Below are positions 54 to 16,564 of a stretch of DNA of 24,000 bases, piece by piece. The stretch comes from an uncultured Jatrophihabitans sp. GTDB taxonomy: Bacteria > Actinomycetota > Actinomycetes > Mycobacteriales > Jatrophihabitantaceae. Positions within the stretch are counted from its first letter, which is position 1. Each line of letters begins with the position of its first letter. Below the pieces are notes generated by a model. It did not search any database and was not told where the DNA came from. It was given only the letters and a program-made list of their open reading frames with translations. The translations under genes were made by a program, and so were the position numbers. The stretch is taken from positions 15,128 through 39,127 of the forward strand of contig NZ_CAXTQF010000029.1 of assembly GCF_964246335.1 (NCBI RefSeq). Reading direction: 5' to 3'.

Positions 54-1352
54 TCAGTGCAGGACGGCATAGAGCAGGTAGGCGTTGAGCGTGATGATCG
101 TGGCGGCCACAGCTGACATCAACGCCGTCGTCGTCGCTCGATTCGCGTGCGGTCCCATGACGTCGGCGCGGCGGCTGAGCATGGTCAGCGGGACGAGGGC
201 GAACGGGACCCCGAAGGACAGCAGCACCTGCGACACCACGAGCGTCGACGTCAACGGCAGGCCGAGGCCGAGCACGACGAGTGCCGGGAGCATCGTGACG
301 CCGCGCCGGACGAACAGCGGGACCTGGCGCCGCAGGTAACCCGCCATCACCACCTGTCCCGCGTAGGTGCCGACGCTCGACGACGAGAGCCCGGACGCGA
401 GCAGGGCCACCGCGAACGCGACGGCGGTGCCGCCGCCCGCGAGCTCGGCGAGCCCGGCGTGTGCGGCGACGATGGAGTCCGCGTGCTGGCCGCTCAGTCC
501 GGAGAACACCGCCGCCGCGACGACCAGCATCACCACGTTGATCACGCCGGCCAGCCCGAGCGCGACGACGACGTCCAGCCGCTGGACGCGCAGCACCGAG
601 CGCCGCTCCCGATCGTTCACGAACGGAGACAGGTTCTTGGTCAACGCCGAATGCAGGTAGACGACGTGCGGCATGACCGTCGCGCCGACGATCCCGGCGG
701 CGAGCACGACGCTGTCCGCGCCGGCGAAGTGCGGCACAAGACCGCCGGCGACCGCACTCGCATGCGCGCCCACCGACGCCAGGTCGTAGAGGAACCCCGA
801 CAGCACCAGCGCGAGCAGCGCCACGACCACGAGCTCGAAGCGCCGGCGCCCGTGCTGCTCGAGCCCGAGGATGACGAAGGCGACGACCGCGGTGATGAGT
901 CCGGCAGGCAGCAGCGGCACTCCGAAGAGCAGGTTCAGCCCGATGGCGGCGCCGACGAACTCTGCGATGTCCGTTGCCATCGCGACGACCTCGGCCTGCA
1001 CCCACAGCAGCGTCGACGCGGTCCGCGGGAACCTCTCCCGGCACAGCTCGGGCAGGTCCCGGCCGGTGACGACGCCGACCTTCGCCGACTGGTACTGCAC
1101 GAGCATCGCCATCACGTTGGCGACGACCACGACCCAGATGAGCGTGTAACCGTACTTCGCGCCGGCGGAGAAGTTCGTCGCGAAATTGCCCGGGTCGATG
1201 TAGGCGACCGAGGCCACGAACGCCGGGCCGACGAGGCCGGCGGCGACACGCCACCGGCTGCGCTCCCCGACTGCGGGATCCGCCGCGGTCGAGGAGGGCT
1301 CAGCGTCGTCGGAGACCGGACCGCGGTGTCCGGCCGTCCTCGTGTCGAACAC
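54..1352 (-). CDS. mntH: Nramp-family divalent metal (Mn2+/Fe2+):H+ symporter
   Basis: 432-aa polytopic ORF with the Nramp signature region VAYIDPGNFATNFSAGAKYGYTLIWVVVVANVMAMLVQYQSAKVGVVTGRDLPELCRE. GTG start at 1352 leaves about 40 aa before the GPAFVA helix, as in mycobacterial MntH. Stop TGA at 54..56. Confidence 0.9.
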   Translation of the reverse strand: MFDTRTAGHRGPVSDDAEPSSTAADPAVGERSRWRVAAGLVGPAFVASVAYIDPGNFATNFSAGAKYGYTLIWVVVVANVMAMLVQYQSAKVGVVTGRDLPELCRERFPRTASTLLWVQAEVVAMATDIAEFVGAAIGLNLLFGVPLLPAGLITAVVAFVILGLEQHGRRRFELVVVALLALVLSGFLYDLASVGAHASAVAGGLVPHFAGADSVVLAAGIVGATVMPHVVYLHSALTKNLSPFVNDRERRSVLRVQRLDVVVALGLAGVINVVMLVVAAAVFSGLSGQHADSIVAAHAGLAELAGGGTAVAFAVALLASGLSSSSVGTYAGQVVMAGYLRRQVPLFVRRGVTMLPALVVLGLGLPLTSTLVVSQVLLSFGVPFALVPLTMLSRRADVMGPHANRATTTALMSAVAATIITLNAYLLYAVLH

Positions 1353-1358
1353 CCATGA

Positions 1359-3077
<1,719 letters not shown>

Positions 3078-4106
3078 TCAGGGAACGAGAATCGCCCGGC
3101 CGCGGACCTCGCCCGCGTCGAGGTCGTGCAGCGCCTCCTGGGCGGCGTCGAGCGGGTAGGTCTTCGTGTGCAGCGTGACCTTGCCGGCCTGGGCGAGCAC
3201 CATCAGCTCGGCCAGCTCGTTGTAGGTGCCGACGATGTTGCCGATCACGTTGCGTTCGGTGCTGACGACGTCGAGCGTCGGGACGTGCAGCTCGCCGCCG
3301 TAGCCGATGACGTAGTACGAGCCGCCCGGACGGGTCATCGCCCAGCCGTCGCGTTCCGCACCCTCCTCGGCGACGAAGTCGAACACCACGTCGGCGCCGG
3401 CACCGTCGGTCAGCTGCAGCACCGCGTCGACGTGCTTGCCGTCGGCCACCACGGTCTGGTTCGCGCCGAGCGACTCGGCCAGTTTGAGCGCAGCGGGATT
3501 GCGGTCGACGACGATGATGTTGGTCGCGGTCAGCGCGGTCAGGCACTGCACGCCGATGTGGCCGAGGCCGCCGGCCCCGATCACCACCGCGGTCGTCCCC
3601 GGATAGAGCAGCGGCACCGCCTTGCGCACCGCGTGGTAGGCGGTGATGCCGGCGTCGGCCAGCGCGGCGAGGGCGTTCGGCTGCGTCGACGGGGCGAGCT
3701 TGATGCACGCGCGCGCCGACGTGAGCAGGTACTCGGCCATCCCGCCGTCGGTGCCGTCCAGGCCGGGGAAGACGCTGAGTTCGCAGTGCATGTCCTGCCC
3801 GGCGCGGCACGCGCGGCACAGCCCGCAGGTCGGCGTCGGGTGCAGGATGACGGTGTCGCCGACCGCGACGTTGGTGACCGCCGAGCCGACCTCGTGCACC
3901 CAGCCGGCGTTCTCGTGCCCGATCGTGTACGGCAGGGTCGGGTGCATCGCCTCGTCCCACTGGCCGAGGATGATGTGCAGGTCGGTGCGGCACACACCGG
4001 CGCCACCGATCTTCACGACGACGTCCGTCGGCCCCTTGACGGTCGGCTCGTCCACCTCGTCGACGGTGGGTTGTTCGTTGTAGGCGTGCAACCGGACGGC
4101 CTTCAT
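3078..4106 (-). CDS. Zn-dependent medium-chain alcohol dehydrogenase (likely secondary-alcohol/2-propanol dehydrogenase)
   Basis: 342 aa. Catalytic Zn motifs GVCRTDLH and GHENAG. Structural Zn cluster CGLCRACRAGQDMHC (C-x2-C-x2-C-x7-C). NAD fold GAGGLG. The start ATG shares one nt with the upstream stop (TGATG at 4104..4108). Confidence 0.9.
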   Translation of the reverse strand: MKAVRLHAYNEQPTVDEVDEPTVKGPTDVVVKIGGAGVCRTDLHIILGQWDEAMHPTLPYTIGHENAGWVHEVGSAVTNVAVGDTVILHPTPTCGLCRACRAGQDMHCELSVFPGLDGTDGGMAEYLLTSARACIKLAPSTQPNALAALADAGITAYHAVRKAVPLLYPGTTAVVIGAGGLGHIGVQCLTALTATNIIVVDRNPAALKLAESLGANQTVVADGKHVDAVLQLTDGAGADVVFDFVAEEGAERDGWAMTRPGGSYYVIGYGGELHVPTLDVVSTERNVIGNIVGTYNELAELMVLAQAGKVTLHTKTYPLDAAQEALHDLDAGEVRGRAILVP

Positions 4107-4828
4107 CAGTCATCTCCTTCGGGGTCCACGGGCAGGCCGTAACGGTTGGCGAGCATGCCTTTGCACACGTGGCCGTTGGCCTCGAGGTTGACCCGCGTGA
4201 GCCGCGCCTTGCCCAGGTGCAGCCGCAGGTCGTCGGGTGCGACGGCCGCGCCGGTCCGCACGTCGATCAGCAGCGGCGCGTCGTCGCCGGCCGGTAGCCC
4301 GAGCTGGGCACGGCGTGCGCGCAGCCGGTCGACGTCGTCGCTGTGCGGCAGGTCGGCCAACGTCAACGTGGCCAGCTCGGCCGGCGTGCGGCGCAGCTGC
4401 CGAACGACGCGGTCGGTGCCGGCCAGGACGGCTTTGCGGACGAAGTCCGCGCGCAGCGTGTCCAACTCACCGTCGGCCAGGCTGCCGAACGACTCGACGA
4501 AGCCGGCACGCGCGGCGACGCCGGCATTGATGTCGGTCGAGGCGAAGTGGTCGTCGAGCAGCACCACCGCCCGCGTCACGCCGGGCACCGCGGCCACCGC
4601 TTCGTAGGCATCGGCCACCATCAGGAACGCGAAGTTCGGCGCACAGAAGTACGTCGGCAGTCGCAGATGCACCTCGGCGACGCCGTCGTCGCCGACCTCG
4701 CAGGAGGCGACGAAACCCAGTGACGTCACCGGCTCGTCGATCTCCGGGTCGATCACGGAGTCGAGAGCGCGCAGCACCAGGGAGCGCGCCGGCAGTGCCA
4801 GCACGCTCCCCTGGTTGGGCTGCGTCAT
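4106..4828 (-). CDS. DUF59 (MIP18/PaaD-like, Fe-S/metallocentre-assembly family) domain protein with an uncharacterised C-terminal half
   Basis: I trimmed the 453-aa track ORF to the ATG at 4828 (MTQPNQGSVL...), giving 240 aa. That ATG overlaps the amidohydrolase stop (ATGA). The N-terminal LDSVIDPEIDEPVTSLGFV ... LRLPTYFCAPNF is typical DUF59. I do not recognise the C-terminal roughly 140 aa. Confidence 0.75.
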   Translation of the reverse strand: MTQPNQGSVLALPARSLVLRALDSVIDPEIDEPVTSLGFVASCEVGDDGVAEVHLRLPTYFCAPNFAFLMVADAYEAVAAVPGVTRAVVLLDDHFASTDINAGVAARAGFVESFGSLADGELDTLRADFVRKAVLAGTDRVVRQLRRTPAELATLTLADLPHSDDVDRLRARRAQLGLPAGDDAPLLIDVRTGAAVAPDDLRLHLGKARLTRVNLEANGHVCKGMLANRYGLPVDPEGDD

Positions 4829-5874
4829 GCCTGGCCTTGGACGAGCTCCGCGTCGTCGCGCCTCGCGGGCTCGCTCTGGTCGGCGATCTGGCACTCGGCC
4901 GGGACGTCGATGTCGTAGAGCTTGGCCGCGTTGAGGCCGAGAATCTTCTTCTTGGTGTCGACGTTGACCCGCGGGTAGTCGGAGAACTCGTCGCTCGGGT
5001 AGTCCCAGTCGACGAACCCCTCGACCTGCCACTTCGGTTCCCAGATGCCGTAGTCGCTGCCGAAGGTCATCTTGTCCTCGCCGACCCAGAACAGCAGCTC
5101 GCCCATCACCTTCGCGAAGAACTTCGGCCGGGCGTACATCAGGCCACCGATGACGACCGAGAGGCCCGCGTAGACGTTGGGCTCCTGCGTCGCCATGAAG
5201 CAGAAGTCCTCGATGCGCGGCAGGCCGACGTGTTCGACGATGAAGTTCAGTTCGGGGAAGTCGGTGGCCGCGTGATCGACGTCGGACACGTCGAAAGCGT
5301 CCTTGTCCAACGGCCAGATCGTCGGGCCCTTGTGCACGTGGACGTTCTTGATCCCCAGCTCTCGGGCCTTGTCCAAGAACCGGTAGCAGTCGGGGTCGCT
5401 GAGCTTGTAGCCGCGCGAACCGTTGTTCCACTCGGCGGTGTAGAGCTTGATCCCCTTGGCGTTCCACCGCTTGACGTTGTCGGCGAACTCCTTCAGGCCG
5501 CTGTCACCGTCACGCGGGTCGAACCGGGTGTTGACGATGAACTTGCCCGGGTACTTCTCGGCCAGCGCGCCGTTCTTCTCGGTGGTGTTGAAGCCTTCCG
5601 AGTACCACTCCTTGAGGTACGTCGGCTGGAAGACCGCGACGTCGACGTGCCCCTTGTCGAACACGTCGCTCATCAGGTCGTCCTCGGAGTACCCCTCGAA
5701 GTGCTCGATCGACCAGTGCGTCTCGGGCGGCCCGAGCGACTGGTAGGCGTGGAAGCATTCGATCCACCCCTTGGCGTACTGCTCCTGGCCCTTGACCCAG
5801 TTCTCCGGTGTGGCGTCCCAGAAGTGCATGTGGCTGTCGACCACGAAGTACTTCTCGCCGTCCTTCTCGTACAC
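4825..5874 (-). CDS. Amidohydrolase-2 family metal-dependent hydrolase (TIM barrel)
   Basis: 349 aa. N-terminal VVDSHMHFW (HxH metal motif). GTG start at 5874 is preceded by AGGAG plus 6 nt. It sits at the conserved position after the coupling protein in prm/mim-type clusters. Confidence 0.8.
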   Translation of the reverse strand: MYEKDGEKYFVVDSHMHFWDATPENWVKGQEQYAKGWIECFHAYQSLGPPETHWSIEHFEGYSEDDLMSDVFDKGHVDVAVFQPTYLKEWYSEGFNTTEKNGALAEKYPGKFIVNTRFDPRDGDSGLKEFADNVKRWNAKGIKLYTAEWNNGSRGYKLSDPDCYRFLDKARELGIKNVHVHKGPTIWPLDKDAFDVSDVDHAATDFPELNFIVEHVGLPRIEDFCFMATQEPNVYAGLSVVIGGLMYARPKFFAKVMGELLFWVGEDKMTFGSDYGIWEPKWQVEGFVDWDYPSDEFSDYPRVNVDTKKKILGLNAAKLYDIDVPAECQIADQSEPARRDDAELVQGQA

Positions 5875-5912
5875 GTACGTCTCCTCACTTGCGCCGCAGC
5901 GCAGATGGACGG

Positions 5913-6287
5913 TCAGCGGGCCTTGAGGTCGAACCCGAGATATTCGGCTGCTTCCTCCGGGTTCGAGAACATGATCGTTCTGTCGTCCAGGTGGACCATG
6001 CGGCCGTAGTGCGTCGACATGTTGTTCTCGAACTCCGAGGCGCTGAAGAAGCCCTCTTCCTCACCGAGCGCCGCGTCCATGTCGTCGTAGACGACGTCGA
6101 AACGGCCGACCCCGTCGACGCGGATCATCGACGGCAGCGGCGTGACCGTCACGTTGTCGATGCGCGACAGCACCTTCGCCATCACGGCGCCGATCTGGTT
6201 GTTCATCAGCGTGAAGCCGCACATGTTCGAGAACGTCTTGTCGGACTTGAACGGGCTCTCGCTCGTCTTGAACCTGGTTTCGGTCAC
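5913..6287 (-). CDS. mimD: SDIMO coupling/effector protein (MmoB/DmpM family)
   Basis: The track ORF (216 aa) has an Arg/Gly-rich, non-coding-looking N-terminus. I call the GTG at 6287 (VTETRFKTSESPF...), which overlaps the small-subunit stop (GTGA), giving 124 aa. Size and position match the fourth gene of mimABCD/prmABCD. The start is less certain; an alternative ATG lies at MCGFTLMNN. Confidence 0.75.
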   Translation of the reverse strand: MTETRFKTSESPFKSDKTFSNMCGFTLMNNQIGAVMAKVLSRIDNVTVTPLPSMIRVDGVGRFDVVYDDMDAALGEEEGFFSASEFENNMSTHYGRMVHLDDRTIMFSNPEEAAEYLGFDLKAR

Positions 6288-7453
6288 TGCGACAGCTCCT
6301 TCGGCGACTTCAGGGACAGGTCGGACAGGATCTCGGCGAACCGGCTCTTGGCCCGGTCGAGGCCATCCTCGAACCGCGGCGCCTTGGCGTCCGGCTGCGA
6401 CCAGATGGGTTGTAGCCGGCGCGCAGCCGCGATGGAGCGTTCCGTCCACTTCGACAGCCAGCCGTCCAGGATCGACTTGTTGTGCTCGGCGAACTCCTTG
6501 TCGTTCGTCAGCAGCTCGAACATCGCCTTCGTGTACCGCAGGTCGCGCTCGGCGTAGTCCCACTCGCCCGCGCCGACGACCGTCGGCGTCACGTAGTCGC
6601 CGTTGCGCGGCGCGGCCTGCTGCACCAGGTTGCTGCGGAGGAGCTCACCCACTAGCGGCTCGAACACGACGTTGACCGCGAACACGGCTTCGCACCAGTC
6701 GTCGATGCAAGTTATCTGCTCGGCGACCTCACGCACGCCCTGCCAGGCGTCGTCGCTGTTCCACGTCTCGACGTGCGCCGAGCCGTCGAAGCCCTCGATC
6801 TCCTCGCTGAGCGTGAGGTTGTAGAGCGCGAGGTCCTGGGCGAAGCGGATCCGGTGCATGCTGTTCACCGAGATCGCGTTGTTGTGCATGTTCGTGGGCG
6901 CCCGCCGGTTGGCGTTCGCGAACACGTACAGCCCGAAACCGTGATCGACGTGCATCCAGGCGCCGACGTTGCGCTCGACGAACGTCACCCAGTTCGGGCT
7001 CCACTGGCTGAACGCCTTGGTCTGGCGCGCGGTCTCCACGTTCTGGTTGATCTGCCGCACGACGTTGGAGTTGTAGCGGTAGAAGGTGAGTTCCCACTCC
7101 TCGTTCGGGTCGCGGAACTCGTGCCACCCGTGGGCCGGCCAGTCGTAACCCTTGCCGCCCGATCCCGGGTAGCGCTCGGGTTCGGGACGGTCACTGCCCC
7201 AGGCCTTGAGCGCCGTCCAGTCGAGCGGGTAACCGCCGCGGCCGTCGGAGAAGCCGTAGATCCACCCCTGGGACAGGTAGTGGCGCGGGTCGGGCTGGAC
7301 CTCGACAGTGACGTCCTCGTAGTGCGACTGACGCCGCTTCGCCGGGGTGAAGTAGTTGTAGCTGCGCGCGGTCGAGTCCGGGAACTCCTTGGCGCCTGCC
7401 TCGGCGTCGGTGAATTCCGGTCTCGGTGCGCTGCGTTCCGTGGTCTCGGTCAT
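6284..7453 (-). CDS. mimC: SDIMO hydroxylase small (beta) subunit
   Basis: I trimmed the 484-aa track ORF to the ATG at 7453 (MTETTERSAPRPEF...), which is 2 nt after the reductase stop, giving 389 aa. It is the third gene in the large subunit, reductase, small subunit, coupling protein order diagnostic of propane/acetone-type SDIMOs. Confidence 0.85.
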   Translation of the reverse strand: MTETTERSAPRPEFTDAEAGAKEFPDSTARSYNYFTPAKRRQSHYEDVTVEVQPDPRHYLSQGWIYGFSDGRGGYPLDWTALKAWGSDRPEPERYPGSGGKGYDWPAHGWHEFRDPNEEWELTFYRYNSNVVRQINQNVETARQTKAFSQWSPNWVTFVERNVGAWMHVDHGFGLYVFANANRRAPTNMHNNAISVNSMHRIRFAQDLALYNLTLSEEIEGFDGSAHVETWNSDDAWQGVREVAEQITCIDDWCEAVFAVNVVFEPLVGELLRSNLVQQAAPRNGDYVTPTVVGAGEWDYAERDLRYTKAMFELLTNDKEFAEHNKSILDGWLSKWTERSIAAARRLQPIWSQPDAKAPRFEDGLDRAKSRFAEILSDLSLKSPKELSQ

Positions 7454-7455
7454 GG

Positions 7456-8502
7456 CTACTCTCTCCCCGGGTCGCCGGTTGTGGTGAATTTGTCGTAGTA
7501 GATGTGTTTCTCGTCCGCGCCCAGCGCGACGAGTGCTTCCATCGCCGCCTCGACCATCGGCGGCGGCCCGCAGACGTAGCAGTCGGCGGCGGACAGGTCG
7601 GTCTCGTTCTTGCTCATCACGTCGGTGATCAGCCCGGTCTCGCCGTCCCACCCGTCGCCCTCGTGATCGGACAACGCAGGGACGAAGCGGAAGTTCGCCA
7701 ACTGGCCCTGCAGGTTCGCCAGCTCCTCGGTGAAGCACAGATCGGGGACCTGTCGGGCGCCGTAGTAGTAGGTCGCCTTGCGGGTGCTGCCCCGCTCGGC
7801 CAACGAGCGCAGCACCGACAGGATCGGCGCCATCCCGGCGCCGCCGCCGAGGAACACCATGTCCGAGTCGCGCCCGTCGCGCAGGGTGAAGACGCCGAAC
7901 GGGCCGGTCAGCTCGAGGACGTCACCGACCTTGAGCTGCGTGTCGAGATATCCGGAGAACAGGCCGCCCGGGTAGATGCGGATGACGAACTCGAGTTCGG
8001 TGCCGCCGGAAGACGGGGTGTTGGCAACGGAGAACGAGCGGGTCTCGTCGGTGCCGGGAACGGTGAAGTCCCAGTACTGGCCGGCGAAGAAGTTGACGCT
8101 CTCCGGCTCGACGATCTTCACCTTGACGTGTCGCATGTCGCGGGTGACGGGATCCACCGAGACGACTTCGGCCTTGGCCCGCTGGATGGGGTGCCCGGAC
8201 CGGATCATCTCCTCGTCGTAGTTGAGCAGCTCGATCGTCACGTCCTCGTAGACGTGCGCCCGGCACAGCAGCGTGAAGCCCTCGTCCTTCTCGAAGTCGG
8301 GCAGCGCGAAGGTGGAGTACTTGTCGAGCTCGATGTCGTCGCCGTCGAGGACGAAGGACTTGCAGGAGGCGCACTGCCCTTCCTTGCAGCCGTGCATGAG
8401 CATGATGCCCTGCTCGGTAGCGGCGCGCAGCACGTTCTGTTCCTCGTCGACCTCGATCTCGATGCCGACGGGCTCGAAGCGTACTGAGTGCTTGTCAGCC
8501 AA
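7456..8502 (-). CDS. mimB: SDIMO NADH oxidoreductase (plant-type 2Fe-2S ferredoxin plus FNR-like FAD/NAD domain)
   Basis: 348 aa. 2Fe-2S ligands CKEGQCASC (C-x4-C-x2-C) plus a later LLCRAH. FAD motif RSFSVAN. NAD motif GGGAGMAP. The start is TTG at 8502, with AGGAG 7 nt upstream. Confidence 0.9.
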   Translation of the reverse strand: MADKHSVRFEPVGIEIEVDEEQNVLRAATEQGIMLMHGCKEGQCASCKSFVLDGDDIELDKYSTFALPDFEKDEGFTLLCRAHVYEDVTIELLNYDEEMIRSGHPIQRAKAEVVSVDPVTRDMRHVKVKIVEPESVNFFAGQYWDFTVPGTDETRSFSVANTPSSGGTELEFVIRIYPGGLFSGYLDTQLKVGDVLELTGPFGVFTLRDGRDSDMVFLGGGAGMAPILSVLRSLAERGSTRKATYYYGARQVPDLCFTEELANLQGQLANFRFVPALSDHEGDGWDGETGLITDVMSKNETDLSAADCYVCGPPPMVEAAMEALVALGADEKHIYYDKFTTTGDPGRE

Positions 8503-8540
8503 AACCTCGCTCCTCGCTCGTCGTCGTGATCTGGTCCGAA

Positions 8541-8573
8541 GGAGGAGGCCCGGTGTTGCACCGGGCCTCCTCC
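8541..8573 (-). promoter_or_regulatory. Perfect 15-bp GC-rich stem-loop in the mimA-mimB intercistronic spacer
   Basis: GGAGGAGGCCCGGTG (8541..8555), loop TTG, CACCGGGCCTCCTCC (8559..8573), with perfect complementarity. It lies in the 91-nt gap between the mimA stop (8594) and the mimB start (8502). No clear U-tract follows on the transcribed strand. Confidence 0.6.
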
Positions 8574-8593
8574 GGAGTGCGGTCTGTTCCTCC

Positions 8594-10246
8594 TCAGGCG
8601 TCGGCAGGCGCCGGGCGGCCGGCGGGACCCTGCTTGACGTAGTCGGCGTGGTACGCCTTCTGCTCGTCCGCGCTCATCTCGTTGAGCAGCACGTTCGGGC
8701 TCTGCAGCGGCGGGCACCGGCGCAGGTGGTCGAGCGTCCACATCTTCTTCGGGTCCAGATTCAGGTGCGGCTGTGCCGTGAGCGTCTTGCCGTCGTCGCG
8801 CACGTAGCCCATGTCGGAGACGACGTCGGCCCAGTTCCAGCCGTGGTAGAGCGTCTCCCACTCGCGCTTGCCGATCAGCTGACCCATGTTCGGCGTATCG
8901 CGACCCTCGTACGTGGGCCGGAACGCGACGGTGTCCGTCCACCGGCAGGCCTCGTGGCAGTAGGTGCGCATCTGCCCGTCGACCTCGGCCATGACCATGT
9001 CCTCACGGACCAGGCAGGGCACCATGCAGGTCCAGCACCGGGCCGGGTAGACGTAGTCGACGTCCTCGAGCGCGATCGGGTTGTGCCCGTTCGCGACCGA
9101 CAGGCGGGCGTAGTTCTCCCACCAGGCGCCGTACTTGTCGTACCAGCCCGGGTACTTGTACTCGAACCACTCGAAGTCCTCGTCGGTCATCGGGTCGATG
9201 CGCCAGTAGTTGGCGAGCCACCCGGTGGCGAAGAACTGCGCGACCTCGTGCACGTAGCCCTTGTTCCAGATCTGGTTCCACGACTCTTCGATCAGGTCGT
9301 GCGGGATCTCCAGGCCGTACTTCTCCAGCGGGACGAGGTAGCTGCGGTAGTAGTCGTCGTAGATCCACCGACGCCACATCTCCGCATAGCTCTCCCGATC
9401 CTTGCGGCGGTCCTTCGTGCCGTACTCGATGAAGGTGCCGATCGCGGCGTCCACGACCCGGTGGTTGTTCCACCACGCGTAACGCAGGTCGCGGGCCAGC
9501 AGCTGGTGGTTGCTCTCGTCCGACAGTGCCATCAGCAGCGTCGCGTACCCGTTGCTGATGTGCCGCGACTCGTCCGACTGCACGGAGTGGAACACCGTCG
9601 GCAACAGGTAGTCACCGTTGGCGGCCGCCTCGGCCGGCATCGCGACGAACAGCGTGTTCGTGAACGCCGTCTCGGCGACGATGGTCAAGTAGATGCTCGC
9701 GGCGGTGATCGCATCGCCGGTGATGAAGCCCTCCGCGAACTGCCGCCCGATGGTGCCGCAGTAGTCGTTTTGGAAGTTCTTCAGGCTGCTGTTGAAGCCG
9801 GCCGGGTCGATGTAGTTGTTCATGTACAGGCGCTTGAGGTTCTGCTGGATCGTCGAGTGGCGAACCTCGTCGATCATCTGGATCGCCTGCCCGTTGTGCA
9901 GCTCCGGGTTCGGCACCGTGTTGAACAGCAGCGGCATCGCGCGCGCCGCGGAGATCTCCGGCAACGGGATGATCGACAGGAACAGCTTCTGCCATTCCAG
10001 CCACCGCTCCTGCACCTGGCGGAACATGTTGCCGCGAATCGCGCCGTCGGATGCCCCGTAAACGCGGTGGTCCTTCTCCTCCTCCATCGGGAAGTAGGAC
10101 CGCAACACCTGCTTGAGCGGGTCCTTCTTCTTCGCCTTCTGGAAGGTGTAGTCGGTGCCGTACTGCGAGACCGGCGTGTGGTACAGCGGATCCCAGGACA
10201 GCTCCTGGATCTTTTCGTGGGCCTTGGCCACGCTCTGACGACTCAT
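8594..10246 (-). CDS. mimA: SDIMO hydroxylase large (alpha) subunit, propane/acetone/phenol monooxygenase type
   Basis: I trimmed the track ORF to the ATG at 10246 ([13 protein letters not shown]...), with GAGGAG 7 nt upstream, giving 550 aa. Both di-iron ExxH motifs are present (MIDEVRHST and [11 protein letters not shown]). From memory, the sequence is close to the MimA/PrmA large subunits of Mycolicibacterium, Rhodococcus and Gordonia. Confidence 0.93.
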
Positions 10247-10312
10247 TGCCACACTCCTCGGGTAGACAGGTGCGTCATCTGGCAATCAGACCCGGCCGCG
10301 GACGGTCGCCAA

Positions 10313-10327
10313 GTCTCAGTACGAGAC
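10313..10327. promoter_or_regulatory. Dyad GTCTC-AGTAC-GAGAC (copy 1 of a recurrent 15-bp operator-like motif)
   Basis: Perfect 5-bp arms. It lies 16 nt after the orf94 stop and 67..81 nt upstream of the mimA ATG. Confidence 0.55.
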
Positions 10328-10343
10328 ACCTGTCGTCGAGGCA

Positions 10344-10628
10344 TCACGCCTCGGTCCCGCGCTCGAAGACGACGGCGCGGATCTCGTCGAGATCCCTGCG
10401 CACCTGACGCATCACCTCGCGGTTGCCCTCGGCGAGTGGCTCGATCCCGAGTGAGCGCAGCAGCGCCCGAGCCGGCTCGGCGGGATCGCCGGCCTCGCCG
10501 AGGACCGGGTGCAACCCCTCGTCGGCGAGCTGCGCGAACACCGTGTGGACCACTGTCCACGGGTTGTACGTCTCGACATCCGATTCGTCGGCCGGCAAGT
10601 TGCTCAGCTGACTGTCCCCGACTCGCAC
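10344..10628 (-). CDS. Hypothetical acidic 94-aa protein between the regulator and mimA
   Basis: The reading frame has a strong GC3 bias (for example CTC GAC GAG ATC CGC GCC GTC GTC TTC GAG). The track start is TTG at 10649, but GGAGG plus 7 nt precedes the GTG at 10628, which I prefer. I recognise no family. Confidence 0.55.
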   Translation of the reverse strand: MRVGDSQLSNLPADESDVETYNPWTVVHTVFAQLADEGLHPVLGEAGDPAEPARALLRSLGIEPLAEGNREVMRQVRRDLDEIRAVVFERGTEA

Positions 10629-10695
10629 GCGCTCACCTCCGGACAGCAATACCTCGGACGTGCGTCCGGTGACTGGTCGACCGGCCGCACCTGCC

Positions 10696-10705
10696 GGTCT
10701 AGACC
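10696..10705. promoter_or_regulatory. 10-bp perfect palindrome GGTCTAGACC (related GTCT/AGAC half-sites, zero spacer)
   Basis: Seen directly. Its centre is about 31 bp from the centre of the 10725..10739 dyad, in the divergent orf94/mimR intergenic region. Confidence 0.3.
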
Positions 10706-10724
10706 CCCGCCGAGGGGCCGAAAA

Positions 10725-10739
10725 GTCTCAATTTGAGAC
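10725..10739. promoter_or_regulatory. Dyad GTCTCAA-T-TTGAGAC (copy 2, perfect 7-1-7 palindrome)
   Basis: Located in the divergent intergenic region, about 97 nt upstream of the orf94 GTG (10628) and 136 nt upstream of the mimR ATG (10875). Confidence 0.6.
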
Positions 10740-10874
10740 ACCGAAGGCGGTCGCATTGCGTACATTTGTGAGGTAGACCACTGCGCCTGAGTACATGCCA
10801 GGCGCCGATCCGGTCCGTGCTGAGTCGACAGCGGGGAAGCGACCGGTGGGAGGCGATCGGAGGTCGGCTCGACC

Positions 10875-12662
10875 ATGACTGGTCCGCCTATTCCGTCGCT
10901 GACGCCCGACGCCGGCGGAGTGGCAGCGAACCGGCTGCGCTTCCTGACCGACGACGGCCGCCCCGAGCGGGTACGACCGCTGATCCTGGCGTCGTGGCGG
11001 CGGTCCCGGAACTTCTCGGTCGCGCCGGACTCGCTGGAACTGCCCTACCGCGCCGACCTCCAGATCGACACGCCGCTCGTGCGCAGCGCACAGCCGGTGC
11101 TGGCCCGGCTCGCCGAACAGCTCAGCGGCCAGCCCATCAGCATCGTCCTCACCGACGCCGCCGGCCTCGTGCTCAGCCGCCGCAGCGGCACCGCTGAACT
11201 GGAGCGATACCTCGACAGCGTCCGACTCGCGCCCGGATTCAATTACGCCGAGGAATTCGTCGGCACCAACGGAATCGGTACCGCGTTGGAGGCCGGTTCG
11301 GCGGCCGAGGTCTTCGGCCACGAGCACTACGCCGAGGACCTGGAGCGGCTGGCGTGCGCCGGCGTGCCGATCCACGACCCGATCAGCGGGCGGCTGCTCG
11401 GGGTCATCGACCTCACGTGCTGGCGAAAAGACGCCGAGTCACTGCTGTTGACGCTGGCCACCTCGACGGCCGACCAGATCAAGCACGCCCTGGTGGAGTC
11501 GTCGAGCGCTCGTGAGTTCGAGGTGCTGCGGGCATACCGGCAGACCTGTCGGCGCACCAACGGCATCGTGTTCGCCGTCACCAACGACGCAATGATGCTC
11601 AACAGCTACGCGCAGGCCGAGCTCGACCCGGCCGACCAGGCGGCGTTGCAGACGATGGCCGGTGAGACGGCGTCGTCGGCCCTGGCCGGCCGGCGGCACT
11701 CACTCTCCCTTGTGCTGCCGAGCGGCGCTGCGGCGCAGCTGTACTGCCAGCAGGTCGATTACGACGGTGCGCCGGCCGGTCTGGTCGTCCACGTCAAGCT
11801 CGTCCAGGACGCCGGTGCGCCGACCGGGATGGCCGACGCCTCGATGTCGGTGCCCGGTCTGGTCGGCGACACGTCGTCGTGGCGACGGGTCTGTCGGCAG
11901 GTGCAGGAAGCGATGAACGCGCGCAGCTGGCTGATGCTCGAGGGTGAGGTCGGTACCGGCAAGGTCGCGTTGCTGCGCGGGGTCCAGGTGCGCCGGCAGC
12001 CGCCCGCGCGCAGCGTCGTGCTCGACGCCGCGGACGTGGGGCCCGGTTGGATGGACGAGGCACGGCGCGCCGTCGCCGCGAACGACACCGTCATCTTCGC
12101 GCACGTCGACCAGCTCAATCCCGCTCGCGTTCGCGCACTGCACGCGCTGCTCGACGACACCCGGCGTGATCCCGAACGCCGTGACCTGTGGGTGGCCGCG
12201 ACCTGTCGACCCGGCGCCGGGGACGACGCGCTGGCCCGGTTGATGCCGTTCTTCCCCACCACCCTGGCCGTGCCGCCGCTGCGCCTGCACATCGACGACC
12301 TGCCGGGCCTGGTCACCTTCTTCCTCGGCAAGCTGGGTTCCGGCGGCAATGTGCAGCTCGCCCCCGCCGCCCTGCGCGTGCTCATGCGCTCACCGTGGCC
12401 CGGCAACGTCCGTCAGCTGCAGCAGCTTGTCCACGACCTGTTGCAGCACCGGCGATCCGGGGTGGTCGGCGTCGAGGACCTGCCGCCGGAGATGCATTCC
12501 ATCAGCCGGCGAGTGCTGTCCACGCTCGAGCAGATGGAACGGGACGCGATCGTGCGCAGCCTCACCGACGCCAGGGGCAACAAGGTGCAGGCCGCGCGAT
12601 CGCTGGGCATGTCCCGCGCGACGATCTACCGCAAGATCCACGAATTCGGCATCGTCCTGTAA
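10875..12662 (+). CDS. mimR: NtrC/AcoR-family transcriptional activator (GAF sensor, degenerate AAA+, Fis-type HTH), MimR-like
   Basis: 595 aa. AcoR-type GAF block: GTNGIGTALE...VFGHEHY...CAGVPIHDPISGRLLGVIDLT. Walker-A-like GEVGTGK. Conserved PPLRLHIDDLP and WPGNVRQL. C-terminal HTH_8: MERDAIVRSLTDARGNKVQAARSLGMSRATIYRKI. It is divergent from the SDIMO operon. GGAGG lies upstream of the ATG. Confidence 0.88.
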   Translation: MTGPPIPSLTPDAGGVAANRLRFLTDDGRPERVRPLILASWRRSRNFSVAPDSLELPYRADLQIDTPLVRSAQPVLARLAEQLSGQPISIVLTDAAGLVLSRRSGTAELERYLDSVRLAPGFNYAEEFVGTNGIGTALEAGSAAEVFGHEHYAEDLERLACAGVPIHDPISGRLLGVIDLTCWRKDAESLLLTLATSTADQIKHALVESSSAREFEVLRAYRQTCRRTNGIVFAVTNDAMMLNSYAQAELDPADQAALQTMAGETASSALAGRRHSLSLVLPSGAAAQLYCQQVDYDGAPAGLVVHVKLVQDAGAPTGMADASMSVPGLVGDTSSWRRVCRQVQEAMNARSWLMLEGEVGTGKVALLRGVQVRRQPPARSVVLDAADVGPGWMDEARRAVAANDTVIFAHVDQLNPARVRALHALLDDTRRDPERRDLWVAATCRPGAGDDALARLMPFFPTTLAVPPLRLHIDDLPGLVTFFLGKLGSGGNVQLAPAALRVLMRSPWPGNVRQLQQLVHDLLQHRRSGVVGVEDLPPEMHSISRRVLSTLEQMERDAIVRSLTDARGNKVQAARSLGMSRATIYRKIHEFGIVL

Positions 12663-12680
12663 CGCGGCCGCGGCTGCGGT

Positions 12681-12890
12681 TCAGGTCGCGAGCAGGCAGA
12701 CCCCGCTGATCGCGACGAGGGCCGACGCGAGCTGCACGCCCCGGGTATGGGCTTGCAGCCAGCGCACGTGCGGCCGGTGACAGGCCGGGATGAGCCGGGG
12801 GTCCACGTGGTGGACGGCGACGCTCCACGACCACTGCACCAACGACACGAGCGCGGCCACCGCGAGCAGCGCCACCGCGGTCTGTGACAT
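12681..12890 (-). CDS. Hypothetical 69-aa two-helix membrane peptide
   Basis: ATG at 12890 with GGAG 7 nt upstream. GC3-rich codons throughout. Two hydrophobic segments (AVALLAVAALVSLV and LASALVAISGVCLLA). No recognisable family. Confidence 0.45.
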   Translation of the reverse strand: MSQTAVALLAVAALVSLVQWSWSVAVHHVDPRLIPACHRPHVRWLQAHTRGVQLASALVAISGVCLLAT

Positions 12891-12958
12891 GCGTCGGCTC
12901 CTTCGTCGGCATCGCGGTGCGTACCCGGTAATCGTGGCGCCGTCGCAATCCGCCGACT

Positions 12959-12973
12959 GTCTCAGTCTGAGAC
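12959..12973. promoter_or_regulatory. Dyad GTCTCAG-T-CTGAGAC (copy 3, perfect 7-1-7 palindrome)
   Basis: It lies 7 nt after the stop of the SatP-like gene and 69 nt upstream of the 69-aa ORF start. A 1-nt loop makes an RNA hairpin implausible, so a protein-binding dyad is more likely. Confidence 0.55.
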
Positions 12974-12980
12974 CGGCCGG

Positions 12981-13664
12981 TCAGTGCACAACGGGTCGGC
13001 CGAGCGCCAACGCTTTGCCGCCGGTAGCCACCGACGAAACACCCATGTAGAGGTAGACGCCCACTGCGGCGAACGCGAAGGCGACTATGCCGGCGATCTT
13101 GGACCATGTGCTCGAGGCGTTGACGGTCGAGATGAGCACGCACACGAGGCATGCCTCGACCAGCACGAACAGCAGCGTGAACGCGAACGGCAGACGCAGG
13201 GTGGCCAGGGTCAGCATGCCGATGATGACCAGCCAGGTGATCAGGAACGCCGCCTGCGTGTGCAGCGCCGCGTTCGGCGTGATTGCGAACCAGTTGTGCG
13301 TGAGCCCGAGCACGAGGGCGGCGTAGCTGAGCCAGAAACCGGAGAAGATGCCGAAGATGCTCGCGACCGCGCTCTGCCCGAGGGCTGCCGCCCACACCGT
13401 GCTGACCGCGAGACCGAATCCCGTCGCCGTCGCGATGATCGGCATCGACGAGCCGAGGCCGCCGGTCGGGACGTAGCCCACCAGCACCAGCGCGAGGGCA
13501 ACAGTGCCTGCGACGAAGACCGGCAGGCCGAGGGCCGCGGGATTGCCGGACAGGAACGGTGGGGTCGGATCGGGTGCGGGCGCCTCGGCGGTCGGGGTGG
13601 GCCTGCGTTCGGTGGCGATGTGGTCGCCGGAGGCGCCTTCGACGCCTGCGTGGGTTGCAGTCAT
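12981..13664 (-). CDS. GPR1/FUN34/YaaH-family (SatP/AceTr-type) acetate/succinate channel homologue
   Basis: I trimmed the track ORF to the ATG at 13664 (MTATHAG...), with GAGGAG upstream, giving 227 aa. Family signature NPAALGL (consensus NPAPLGL) is followed by six hydrophobic helices. Confidence 0.8.
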   Translation of the reverse strand: MTATHAGVEGASGDHIATERRPTPTAEAPAPDPTPPFLSGNPAALGLPVFVAGTVALALVLVGYVPTGGLGSSMPIIATATGFGLAVSTVWAAALGQSAVASIFGIFSGFWLSYAALVLGLTHNWFAITPNAALHTQAAFLITWLVIIGMLTLATLRLPFAFTLLFVLVEACLVCVLISTVNASSTWSKIAGIVAFAFAAVGVYLYMGVSSVATGGKALALGRPVVH

Positions 13665-13739
13665 GACGAACTCCTCGGTGCGGAACGATCTTCTTGTCGA
13701 GATCGCCGACGATGCTCGCAACGTGGACGCCTCGGCTGC

Positions 13740-13754
13740 GTCTCACTCTGGGAC
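13740..13754. promoter_or_regulatory. Dyad GTCTC-ACTCT-GGGAC (copy 4, one mismatch), overlapping the palindrome GGGACGTCCC (13750..13759)
   Basis: Seen directly in the SatP-like/BLUF divergent intergenic region. Confidence 0.35.
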
Positions 13755-13787
13755 GTCCCGCGCACACCACCGGAAACGACGGTGCAC

Positions 13788-13802
13788 GTCTCAATCCGAG
13801 AC
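13788..13802. promoter_or_regulatory. Dyad GTCTC-AATCC-GAGAC (copy 5, perfect; arms extend to ACGTCTC/GAGACGT at 13786..13804)
   Basis: It lies 124 nt upstream of the SatP-like ATG (13664) and 126 nt upstream of the BLUF ATG (13928). Confidence 0.6.
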
Positions 13803-13830
13803 GTCCGCGACGGTGCCGGCCGGCCGGGTC

Positions 13831-13845
13831 GTCGCAGAGTGAGAC
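13831..13845. promoter_or_regulatory. Dyad GTCGC-AGAGT-GAGAC (copy 6, one mismatch)
   Basis: Its centre is 43 bp from the centre of copy 5, in the same intergenic region and 83 nt upstream of the BLUF ATG. Confidence 0.35.
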
Positions 13846-13927
13846 CGCAGATCCCGCCGGTGCGCGGACGATGAGCGCGCAGGCCGTGGGTTGGTCCATC
13901 GAGTTCTTCGCATGAGGAGGCACCCGG

Positions 13928-14377
13928 ATGAGCAGTGACGGATTGCAGGGCCCCGCGTTCCGCCTCATGTACCGCAGCCACAGTCTGATCCCGGCCGAGT
14001 CGAGCAAGGCCGAGCTCGGCGCGCTGTTCTCGGTCGCGCGATCGAACAACAAGAAGCTCGGGATCACCGGCGCCCTGATGCTGGACGCGGAGTGGTTCGT
14101 GCAGACGCTGGAGGGCGACGAGGCTGCCGTGCGCTCGCTGTTCGAACGCATCAGCACCGATCCCCGGCACGACGACGTCGCCGTGCTCGACACCGCAACG
14201 GTGCCCGCCCGCGCGTTCCCGCACTGGTCGATGGCGCAGGTGTCCACCGCCGGCAAGGACGACGTCTATCTCATCGCGCACGAGGACGGCATCGCGCCGG
14301 CGACCCCGCGGCGACGCAGTCCGGAGCAGGACGCAGCGCTCGACACCATGCGCGCAGCGGTGAGCGCGCAGGTCTAG
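13928..14377 (+). CDS. Short stand-alone BLUF-domain (blue-light sensor using FAD) protein
   Basis: 149 aa. ATG is preceded by GAGGAGG plus 7 nt. BLUF hallmarks: LMYRS (Tyr15), SNNKKLGITGAL (Asn40/41), FVQTLEG (Gln59), DPRH, and FPHWSM (Trp100, Met102). The Gln-to-Met spacing of 43 matches what I recall for AppA. Confidence 0.85.
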   Translation: MSSDGLQGPAFRLMYRSHSLIPAESSKAELGALFSVARSNNKKLGITGALMLDAEWFVQTLEGDEAAVRSLFERISTDPRHDDVAVLDTATVPARAFPHWSMAQVSTAGKDDVYLIAHEDGIAPATPRRRSPEQDAALDTMRAAVSAQV

Positions 14378-14572: not shown

Positions 14573-14668
14573 GGCATCTCCAGGTGCGACTGGCTGGATG
14601 GTTCGCCTCATCGTGTGCGGCAGGGTCTGCTGCGGACGTGTCACTTTGCGACACAAGGAACGTCTGGG

Positions 14669-14742
14669 AGCCGCCTGTCGGAGTCGAACCGACGACCTGC
14701 CGCTTACAAGGCGGCTGCTCTGACCAACTGAGCTAAGGCGGC
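14669..14742 (-). tRNA. tRNA-Thr (anticodon UGU)
   Basis: The reverse complement folds as a canonical 74-nt cloverleaf: acceptor GCCGCCT/AGGCGGC, D arm GCTC..GAGC, anticodon stem GCCGC/GCGGC with loop CTTGTAA, variable AGGTC, T arm GTCGG-TTCGACT-CCGAC, discriminator T. CCA is not exactly encoded; the genomic sequence continues CCCA. Confidence 0.93.
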
Positions 14743-15599: not shown

Positions 15600-15692
15600 G
15601 CGCTCTGCCCTTCTCGGCGATGCGGGAGCGGGGTTGATGTTAGCTCGGCGGCGTTCCGCTGCGCGCGCCGGGACGTATAGGTGGTGTCCCGC

Positions 15693-15736
15693 AAACGCCA
15701 ACAATCTTTCGGTTCGGCGAAAGATTCTTGGCGTTT
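15693..15736 (+). terminator. Long hairpin (19-bp stem, one C-C mismatch, 6-nt loop) downstream of the acyltransferase gene
   Basis: AAACGCCAACAATCTTTCG (15693..15711), loop GTTCGG, CGAAAGATTCTTGGCGTTT (15718..15736), followed by CTCT. It lies 94 nt after the stop at 15599, inside a 341-bp non-coding gap. Confidence 0.4.
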
Positions 15737-15940
15737 CTCTGGCGAGCGAAGTACCCCTCCTCGTCGCGTGGCGACCCTGCGGGATGACACGCCGAGGATC
15801 CGCCCGCAGAGCAGCCACGCGGCACGATTCCATGTGGCGCGAGTGACTGCCGAGGCTGATGTATCGAACGCTGCAATTCACTCGCCGGACTGGCCTGTGG
15901 ACAACGCGCGCAAGATCGATTCTCGTGCCAGTATTCGTGG

Positions 15941-16564
15941 GTGCGTATGTGGTGGTGCGCGGCGATACTCGCGATCACTGCTGCGTTGACGGCGTGCACC
16001 GGATCGGCCACACCGCGCCCCACTCATTCGCCGGTGCCGACCACTCCATCGACGTCGGCTGCGCCGAGCTCCACTGCGCCGCCGGCACCCGTGGTGCCCA
16101 CCACCGGCCCCAACGTCCGCCCCGGCGAAAGACCGCCAACGCTCCCGGCGGTGGGCCACGAAGACAAGCCGATCGGCGCCGACTTCTACGCGCGCTATTG
16201 GATTGAGACACTCGATTGGGGCTATGCCACCACGAGCTCGGCGTTGGCCCGAACTGCATTCTCGCCGGTGTGCACTGGGTGTGCGAGGTTTGTAACCACC
16301 TACGACCTCACGAGCAAGGCGGGAGATCATTTCGTTGGCGGCCGATCAAGCATCACCAGTTCCGCCATCGCAGACAACGACAAGCGGAATGGCGCTCAGT
16401 ACGCAGTCGACATAACCATTTCGGTCGCACCACTGAAGACGGTGGACGCAAAGGGTGCTGCTGTGTCCTCGGCGAAGCCACTTACGATCACCTTTCGCAA
16501 CTGGCTCGCTTGGCGCGGCGTCGGATTCACTGTCGTTGACTTCAAACAAGTGGTGATGAAGTGA
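15941..16564 (+). CDS. Putative lipoprotein with a Pro/Thr/Ser-rich linker
   Basis: 207 aa. Signal peptide with lipobox: MRMWWCAAILAITAALTAC (L-T-A-C). A PT-rich linker is followed by a globular domain (FYARYWIETLDWGY...). The start is GTG at 15941 or ATG at 15947. Confidence 0.7.
   Translation: MRMWWCAAILAITAALTACTGSATPRPTHSPVPTTPSTSAAPSSTAPPAPVVPTTGPNVRPGERPPTLPAVGHEDKPIGADFYARYWIETLDWGYATTSSALARTAFSPVCTGCARFVTTYDLTSKAGDHFVGGRSSITSSAIADNDKRNGAQYAVDITISVAPLKTVDAKGAAVSSAKPLTITFRNWLAWRGVGFTVVDFKQVVMK

Follow-up and report, generated by a model that had tools for sequence, protein, structure and literature searches.

A palindrome conserved beside mimR-type genes is a probable class II-like operator of MimR-type regulators in actinobacterial monooxygenase loci

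We analysed a 24,000-nt stretch of contig NZ_CAXTQF010000029.1 (positions 15,128 to 39,127, forward strand) from an uncultured Jatrophihabitans sp., referred to here as the window, in which a short palindrome, or dyad, recurs around the genes of a di-iron monooxygenase. The palindrome, tGTCTCA-N3-TGAGACa, is likely to be the recognition site of the MimR-type regulator encoded at 10875-12662 and to support a class II-like mode of activation; we call it the "MimR box". The box is conserved in related actinobacterial loci, lies in intergenic DNA beside mimR-type genes and keeps a fixed distance to a -10-like hexamer, and the regulator has lost the motif with which its enhancer-binding relatives contact sigma-54.

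An earlier note, made by reading the window by eye, had listed GTCTC-N5-GAGAC in four perfect copies, at 10313, 10725, 12959 and 13788, and in two copies with one mismatch, at 13740 and 13831. A rescan of the window returned the same coordinates, sequences and counts, and an independent repeat search returned the identical six dyads as a single family (D1). The rarity that had been estimated for the perfect copies was upheld by dinucleotide-preserving shuffles, from which 0.04 perfect copies are expected in the window; not one of the 100 shuffles contained as many as four, and none reached the six copies found with up to one mismatch, for which 1.73 are expected. A chance origin of the repeated palindrome is thus excluded. 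All six dyads are non-coding, as had been claimed, in a window of which 12% is non-coding according to our gene map, which was made with a codon-bias caller and checked with Pfam and NCBIfam. The 5-N5-5 geometry described in the note is present in the copies, but the unit that emerges when the sites of the window and of 79 other loci are aligned is a 6-3-6 palindrome, GTCTCA-N3-TGAGAC, flanked by a weaker t and a. Under the 6-3-6 rule, the dyads at 10725 and 12959 are perfect and the remaining four have one mismatch each.

For the comparison with other genomes, 22 regulator homologues were aligned, and the alignment served to retrieve 79 loci, each from the genome of a different species, whose regulators are 47-63% identical; the family is large, as at least 3,585 proteins are related to the window regulator at E <= 1e-20. 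A perfect 5-N5-5 dyad lies ahead of the regulator gene, ~60-220 bp from its start codon, in 74 of the 79 loci. The density of the dyad in coding and intergenic DNA had been set beforehand as a check: over the 79 loci and the window, coding sequence makes up 88% of the DNA, yet 100 of the 106 perfect 5-N5-5 copies fall between genes. The 6-3-6 form is still more confined. Base-composition arithmetic predicts ~0.04 perfect copies in the total of 1.476 Mb; we found 101, and 100 of them have a mimR-type gene no more than 1.3 kb away.

Clustering of the neighbouring proteins indicates that the fetched loci are orthologous. The order mimA <- dyad <- orf101 <- dyad -> mimR, where orf101 encodes a small protein, is found in ~70 loci, and the position of the dyad ahead of mimA is kept likewise. 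These loci belong to Actinoplanes, Amycolatopsis, Prauserella, Kibdelosporangium, Saccharomonospora, Kineosporia, Streptosporangiaceae, Nocardioidaceae and Frankiales. The spacer around the dyad carries no sequence information and has fully diverged between loci, so that the dyads stand at matching positions in otherwise unrelated spacer sequence. Conservation in orthologous loci, the second check named in the note, is thus seen as well.

The dyad also extends to more distant loci. For Rhodococcus plasmid homologues, 41% identical to the window regulator, a perfect dyad precedes the gene, and R. opacus PD630 has two dyads ahead of the regulator. On an R. aetherivorans plasmid, the cluster is rearranged and prmA is truncated and unannotated, with the perfect dyad still upstream of prmA. 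One dyad lies 44 bp before the regulator start codon in a Mycobacterium metagenome-assembled genome, and one lies ahead of prmA in Gordonia. The MimR-domain regulators of Rhodococcus, Gordonia and the Mycobacterium genome (41% identical to that of the window) have the same cluster and the same dyad as the window, whereas their loci lack orf101 and have another gene order. Because the dyad persists without orf101 and under other gene orders, no DNA-binding gene other than that of the regulator is found with it in every case.

This distribution bears on the idea that another protein, either a global regulator of the CRP/GlxR type or the orf101 product, binds the dyad. For the Rhodococcus BCP1 prmA promoter, a conserved putative CRP site just upstream of the -35 is described together with catabolite repression (PMC4428276), and orf101 flanks dyads in 68 of 80 loci. 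However, a global factor should also have sites at other promoters, and a single one of the 101 perfect dyads lies away from a mimR-type gene. The half-sites, TCTCA-N3-TGAGA, are also inside-out and more closely spaced relative to the CRP site TGTGA-N6-TCACA. For the orf101 product, the stronger argument is its absence from the Rhodococcus, Gordonia and Mycobacterium loci that retain the dyad; in addition, no DNA-binding family or fold was found for it, with a low-confidence model that does not exclude DNA binding. We therefore consider a different binder unlikely. Two boxes of other regulators, the HspR HAIR element (CTTGAGT-N7-ACTCAAG) and the DosR box, were compared as well and set aside, as their half-sites and spacing differ from those of the dyad.

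The position of the dyad relative to the promoters is equally constrained. Upstream regions were aligned on the dyad centre and profiled for position-specific information. On the mimA side, a TGTNAT-like hexamer is conserved at +30 to +35 from the centre, with 2.4 bits at T30, 2.4 at A34 and 2.3 at T35, and 62 of 72 loci have all three bases, a combination with a background frequency of 0.2%. For mimR, 44 of 76 loci have TAnnnT precisely at +29 to +34, where the background is 0.06%. This conserved -10 hexamer starts 21-22 bp past the end of the dyad, and the -35 position in the anchored profiles is without information save for the dyad itself. A -10 hexamer at +29 to +35 would place the dyad over the -35 region, with its centre at about -41.5 from the transcription start. 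The same arrangement is suggested in Gordonia, where the hexamer is TTGTAT and the predicted leader ~57 nt, matching the Rhodococcus sp. BCP1 prmA promoter, for which a start was mapped 55 nt before the gene and a -10 of TTGTAT was proposed (Cappelletti et al. 2015, PMC4428276); relative to the identical hexamer, the Gordonia dyad lies just where conserved elements were described at that promoter.

In the window, dyads 1 to 6, numbered by position and given without strand, fit this arrangement to differing degrees. Dyad 1 (GTCTCAGTACGAGAC, 10313..10327), through which the regulator is proposed to activate the monooxygenase operon, has its centre 74 bp from the mimA start codon, and a -10-like hexamer, TCTGAT, lies at +30 to +35 on the minus strand (10285..10290); mimA transcription would start near 10278-10279, with a leader of ~32 nt. 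Dyad 2 (GTCTCAATTTGAGAC, perfect, 10725..10739) is common to the divergent orf101 and mimR promoters, and the mimR hexamer, TACATT, lies at +29 to +34 on the plus strand (10761..10766), from which we infer a start near 10773 and a leader of ~100 nt. Dyad 3 (GTCTCAGTCTGAGAC, perfect, 12959..12973), 8 bp past the stop codon of a gene for a SatP-like channel, would serve orf69, a gene for a small hydrophobic protein, with CACGAT at +30 to +35 (12931-12936, minus strand). The remaining three dyads fill the spacer between the SatP-like gene and a gene for a BLUF-domain protein: dyad 4 (one mismatch, 13740..13754) is centred 83 bp from the SatP start and has GAGCAT at +30 to +35 (13712-13717, minus strand), dyad 5 (13788..13802) lies in the middle, and dyad 6 (one mismatch, 13831..13845) is centred 90 bp from the BLUF start and has GACGATG at +29 to +35 (13867-13873). 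This spacer is symmetric from 13740 to 13845, in that dyads 4 and 6 form the arms of a 21-nt, 90% inverted repeat (I6) around dyad 5, with dyad centres 48 and 43 bp apart. Neither a full -35/-10 consensus promoter nor a terminator was found in 10200-14000.

Two further observations concern mimR promoters in other loci. In Rhodococcus (L087, 6919-6950; L080, 7895-7926), two dyads have their centres 17 bp apart, the first at the class II position relative to TACTCT or TACGCT and the second inside the promoter spacer, which suggests autorepression through the second site. In seven of the fetched loci (L016, L024, L034, L042, L044, L046 and L057), the mimR leaders have in common a GGCTGAGCCTCCAG-like element ~70-110 nt past the dyad centre, which could reflect close kinship of these loci or be a leader element.

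The geometry also argues against a role of the palindrome in RNA, as a hairpin, terminator or attenuator, since it puts most copies upstream of the transcription starts. The palindrome can fold into a 6-bp stem with a 3-nt loop, and the location of dyad 3 right after the SatP stop codon would suit a terminator, but the variant copies break the pairing without compensation (CTCTCA..TGAGAC and GACTCA..TGAGAG), no T-run or terminator-like site was found in 10200-14000, and there is no Rfam match. A dispersed repeat of the REP (repetitive extragenic palindromic) or MITE (miniature inverted-repeat transposable element) kind is disfavoured by the dyad flanks, which have no extended similarity. We regard both forms of this explanation as highly improbable.

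The regulator itself (595 aa, plus strand) is of the MimR type. The precomputed Pfam annotation of an identical protein contains MimR_N (PF26965) and MimR (PF26961); a GAF domain is found at residues 71-199 (E 1.5e-10), AAA_lid_14 at 473-544 and a Fis-type helix-turn-helix (HTH) domain, HTH_8, at 550-591 (E 5.5e-11), while the AAA+ core is degenerate. Pfam bears out the gene assignments of the earlier note, namely a soluble di-iron monooxygenase (SDIMO) alpha subunit, a GAF/AAA-lid/HTH_8 regulator, a SatP-like channel and a BLUF protein. The regulator gene stands in a mimABCD/prmABCD-type di-iron monooxygenase cluster with amidohydrolase, FeS-assembly-like, alcohol dehydrogenase and GroEL-like genes, and it resembles MimR of M. 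smegmatis in its MimR_N and MimR domains, in the combination of GAF and Fis-type HTH and in this neighbourhood. MimR of Mycolicibacterium smegmatis mc2155 and M. goodii 12523 was reportedly identified by Furuya et al. in 2011 as the acetone-responsive activator of mimABCD. The window regulator differs from its Rhodococcus homologues, to which it is ~41% identical, in keeping the Walker A lysine, which is an arginine in theirs, and in having the extra gene orf101 beside it. Its best NCBIfam match is DhaR (NF008485, E 2e-41, 142 bits, below the equivalog cut-off of 551), and its N-terminus, residues 26-210, aligns to the GAF-like domain of DhaR (4lrx); by these matches, the regulator is related to DhaR and is not a DhaR.

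Public annotation calls the window regulator a "sigma-54-dependent Fis family regulator", and its AAA lid and HTH_8 are common to NtrC, NifA, FleQ and ZraR. NtrC, NifA, XylR and DmpR have dyads that are read by a C-terminal Fis-type HTH, and DmpR and XylR are sigma-54 activators of hydrocarbon monooxygenases. If the likeness went further, the dyad would be an NtrC-style upstream activating sequence (UAS), from which the regulator remodels a distant sigma-54 (-24/-12) promoter by DNA looping and at the expense of ATP. Such a mechanism is extremely unlikely here. The GAFTGA loop is absent from all 240 family members inspected, the window protein included, and Sigma54_activat (PF00158) gives no match at E <= 0.001, the lid being the only domain matched. 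Against solved structures, the alignment to NifA, FleQ, NtrC and ZraR is confined to the Walker A segment and the lid, and residues 372-458, from Walker A to the lid, have no alignment to NifA, FleQ or NtrC. The -24/-12 pattern TGGCAC-N5-TTGC (<=2 mismatches) occurs 21 times against 22.7 expected, and never in the four target spacers. With its predicted centre near -41.5, the dyad is promoter-proximal and is not a distant sigma-54 enhancer: its end lies only 21-22 bp from the conserved -10 hexamer, compared with ~80-150 bp or more for a UAS. The sigma-54 system is, moreover, missing from Actinobacteria (PMC3162934). Thus, of the earlier proposal that a MimR-like activator with a Fis-type HTH reads the dyad as NtrC-family activators do, the regulator as the protein that reads the dyad is favoured by the conservation of the dyad and its linkage to the regulator, and the NtrC-style distant UAS is not retained.

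The Walker A segment (residues 357-363, window 11943-11963) reads GxxGxGK in 118 of 120 members of the window clade, and the lysine is replaced by arginine (GxxGxGR) in the Rhodococcus/Gordonia/Mycobacterium clade, where 0 of 120 proteins (P0121-P0240) have lysine. The arginine suggests that ATP hydrolysis may not be needed, in this second clade at least. The recognition helix of the HTH, SRATIYRKI, is nearly invariant. Among the paralogues, those beside mdo or copper monooxygenase genes lack the dyad, and their helix reads SRSTLYARM; in RHA1, the acetone-carboxylase paralogue, with the helix ARSSLYRKL, is accompanied only by a variant site, GTCTCACGTCGACAC; and a Streptomyces paralogue with SRATMYRKM keeps a one-mismatch dyad. 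That helix and site change together suggests, short of proof, that MimR is the binder. A finer correlation, between a K-to-R change in the helix and A at dyad position 1 (L053, L064, L072), was rejected, as L065 and L067 have the A without the K-to-R change. The paralogues (L082, which is R. jostii RHA1 pRHL2, and L083, L084 and L085) adjoin diverse gene sets: acetone carboxylase; NDMA-dependent methanol dehydrogenase (mdo) with MoxR/VWA; copper membrane monooxygenase; and alcohol dehydrogenase with an ABC transporter. The MimR family looks like a general set of small-ketone and small-alcohol sensors whose DNA sites have diverged.

In the mechanism that we favour, a dimer of the C-terminal Fis-type HTH would bind the two half-sites of a box ~41.5 bp before the start, where the box takes the place of the -35 element at promoters that have a -10 hexamer and no -35. 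An inducer, which in the mycobacterial prototype is acetone, would be sensed through the N-terminal MimR_N/GAF module, and the regulator on its box would then recruit RNA polymerase with the housekeeping sigma factor, or activate it, as a class II activator does. The boxes of the window would serve five promoters, those of the mimABCD-accessory operon, of orf101 and mimR (one shared box), of orf69, of the SatP-like gene and of the BLUF gene. The SatP promoter would be driven by a weaker variant of the box, and the central box of the SatP-BLUF spacer probably aids cooperative binding.

Several points weigh against this mechanism. A site that overlaps the -35 region could also serve repression, in which case the dyad would be a MimR operator that mainly blocks RNA polymerase until the inducer brings about release. 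Besides the overlap, the second dyad of the Rhodococcus mimR promoters, 17 bp downstream of the first and within the spacer, occupies a typical repressing position. Against predominant repression, the target promoters have no -35 consensus, as is the case for activator-dependent promoters, and class II activation calls for a strict one-face spacing to the -10 hexamer such as is seen here. In the work of Furuya et al. in 2011, an M. smegmatis mutant deleted for mimR is also said to have lost acetone induction, with no de-repression. A mainly repressing operator is accordingly improbable, and activation would be the principal role of the box.

The other points concern the fit of individual sites and the design of the comparison. 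The value of -41.5 depends on -10-like hexamers and on one mapped start in another genus, and the proposed mechanism gives no account of the retained AAA+ module. Neither L070 nor L075 contains a perfect dyad within ~21.8 kb, and no monooxygenase adjoins their regulators, and yet the recognition helix of these regulators is near-identical (MARATIYRKI, L070) or identical (L075) to that of the dyad-bearing loci. On the orf101 side of dyad 2, the window has only TCTAGA, a weak match, at the place expected for a -10 element, and the first in-frame start codon of orf101 is 83 bp from the dyad, which indicates that orf101 is not leaderless in the window. Dyad 5 has no -10-like hexamer at the usual distance on either side and is therefore probably an auxiliary or cooperative site. 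Finally, genes in the fetched loci were called with a simple caller of our own, and every locus was chosen for its regulator, so that linkage was measured against ~20 kb of flank per locus.

The predicted core targets are mimA, orf101 and the regulator gene itself. Where present (68 of 80 loci), orf101 always lies between two dyads and often appears to be leaderless, as judged from its start codon: in 24 of 66 loci, only 39-44 bp separate this codon from the centre of the dyad, consistent with leaderless transcripts. Its product of ~80 aa has a highly conserved core, ETYNPWTVVNLVFxHLAxQGLHPVLGE..GDPG..A..LLRALGI.PAAEGNR, and no relative in Pfam, NCBIfam or the PDB; a single-sequence AlphaFold model is helical and weak (predicted local distance difference test, pLDDT, 66), and Foldseek returned nothing at E < 1.

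Downstream of mimR, small hydrophobic open reading frames (ORFs) recur behind a dyad. In L001, a gene of the orf69 family (11854-12078) follows a perfect dyad just past mimR, as in the window, and L036 has the same arrangement of dyad and small ORF after mimR in our gene map. ORFs like orf69 in size and hydrophobicity, with a perfect dyad upstream, are present in L039 (3073-3294) and L056 (2871-3095), which did not cluster with orf69. From their sequences, these ORFs of ~70 aa look like two-transmembrane peptides; none could be assigned to a family.

The earlier note had also predicted that the acetate-channel and BLUF genes are co-regulated with the monooxygenase operon, which holds for the two genes to different extents. 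A SatP-like gene adjoins mimR in 15 of 80 loci, the window included, and in 14 of them (13 besides the window) it is preceded by a best dyad of 1-3 mismatches. The 13 dyads outside the window are degenerate, following G[GA][CT]TCAAANTGAGA[AG], and in L018, where the spacing was checked, a TAC-type hexamer stands at +30 to +35, so that the promoter geometry matches as well. The BLUF link is confined to the window, since no BLUF homologue was found in the other 79 loci; the BLUF gene is possibly an extra regulon member in this genome only. Enzymes of the MimABCD type hydroxylate acetone and are acetone-induced (PMC7176365), and the proposed regulon is physiologically coherent.

A wider interpretation, to which we give slightly less than an even chance, would make MimR-type proteins former enhancer-binding proteins that have lost the sigma-54 contact and become class II activators of promoters read with the housekeeping sigma factor, with one symmetric 15-bp box, centred at -41.5, firing both leaderless orf101 and mimR back to back, and with a small, portable regulon across Actinomycetota that consists of the operon, orf101, the two-transmembrane peptide and the SatP-like gene; the BLUF gene would have been recruited to it, coupling ketone or propane oxidation to blue light.

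Other Fis-type regulators offer precedents for parts of this arrangement. E. coli DhaR and TyrR have the same architecture of sensor, AAA+-like and Fis-type HTH domains, without a sigma-54 contact loop, and both act at ordinary, sigma-70-dependent promoters. TyrR recognises boxes of the form TGTAAA-N6-TTTACA and, as an activator, works from class I sites upstream of the promoter; the dyad described here differs in being 6-3-6 and in overlapping the -35 region. The inferred position, the replacement of the -35 element and the fixed spacing to the -10 hexamer are instead those of class II CRP/FNR sites (-41.5), although these are bound by a protein of an unrelated fold and, for CRP, read TGTGA-N6-TCACA. 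From the sequence comparisons, a relative of enhancer-binding proteins thus appears to act from a class II position. MimR-like "NtrC-family" activators are said, in the 2011 report, to be common in actinomycetes that lack sigma-54, with the mechanism left open.

The earlier note had called the site undescribed. To our knowledge, no DNA site is known for MimR, and a literature search found no defined site or consensus for MimR or PrmR; in this sense the description stands. It needs qualification in that conserved elements have been reported at this position: the prmA promoter of Rhodococcus is described as having the CRP-like site mentioned above and a conserved palindrome over the -35 that was likened to a Fis site (PMC4428276). 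The dyad probably corresponds to one or the other of these elements, for which the text of Cappelletti et al. 2015 gives no sequence, consensus, other promoters or genera, or binding test. The same source describes the cluster gene order seen here for M. smegmatis and Rhodococcus. Because MimR is known and elements were reported without a consensus, the finding would amount to the operator of a known regulator family. If so, the Rhodococcus prmA element earlier read as a CRP site may be the site of the specific regulator.

A family-wide DNA site with a fixed promoter geometry makes the question of the MimR mechanism experimentally simple and permits prediction of the regulon in any genome with a MimR orthologue. 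It also draws attention to the uncharacterised small protein orf101, which, judging by its boxes, is universally co-regulated. In Rhodococcus, Mycobacterium and Gordonia, the defined operator would be usable for biosensors or inducible promoters that respond to acetone, 2-propanol or propane.

The target operon behind dyad 1 runs on the minus strand from mimA, the SDIMO alpha subunit gene (8594-10246), to an Nramp transporter gene (54-1352), and thus covers 54..10246. Between them, all on the same strand, lie the genes for the reductase MimB (7456-8502), the beta subunit MimC (6284-7453), the coupling protein MimD (5913-6287), an amidohydrolase (4825-5874), an FeS-assembly-like protein (4106-4828), an alcohol dehydrogenase (3078-4106) and a GroEL-like chaperonin (1359-3050). 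The gene families of the operon are each shared by 47-73 of the loci, and 25 of them have Nramp; the Nramp-family transporter may supply metal to the di-iron enzyme. Upstream of mimA, orf101 (10344-10649, minus strand) lies between dyads 1 and 2 and is divergent from mimR. Beyond mimR, orf69 (12681-12890, minus strand) has its start codon 76 bp from the centre of dyad 3 and is followed by the SatP-like channel gene of the GPR1/FUN34/YaaH family (12981-13664, minus strand) and, on the plus strand, by the BLUF gene (13928-14377), assigned by Pfam.

Directly downstream of the BLUF gene lies a tRNA-Thr gene (anticodon TGT, 14667-14742, minus strand); a two-mismatch copy of the dyad beside it, at 14638-14652, was set aside as probably due to chance. 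Further on, at 15600-16930, the coding signal is weak, and the sole recognisable product is a DUF6318 protein (15941-16564, plus strand).

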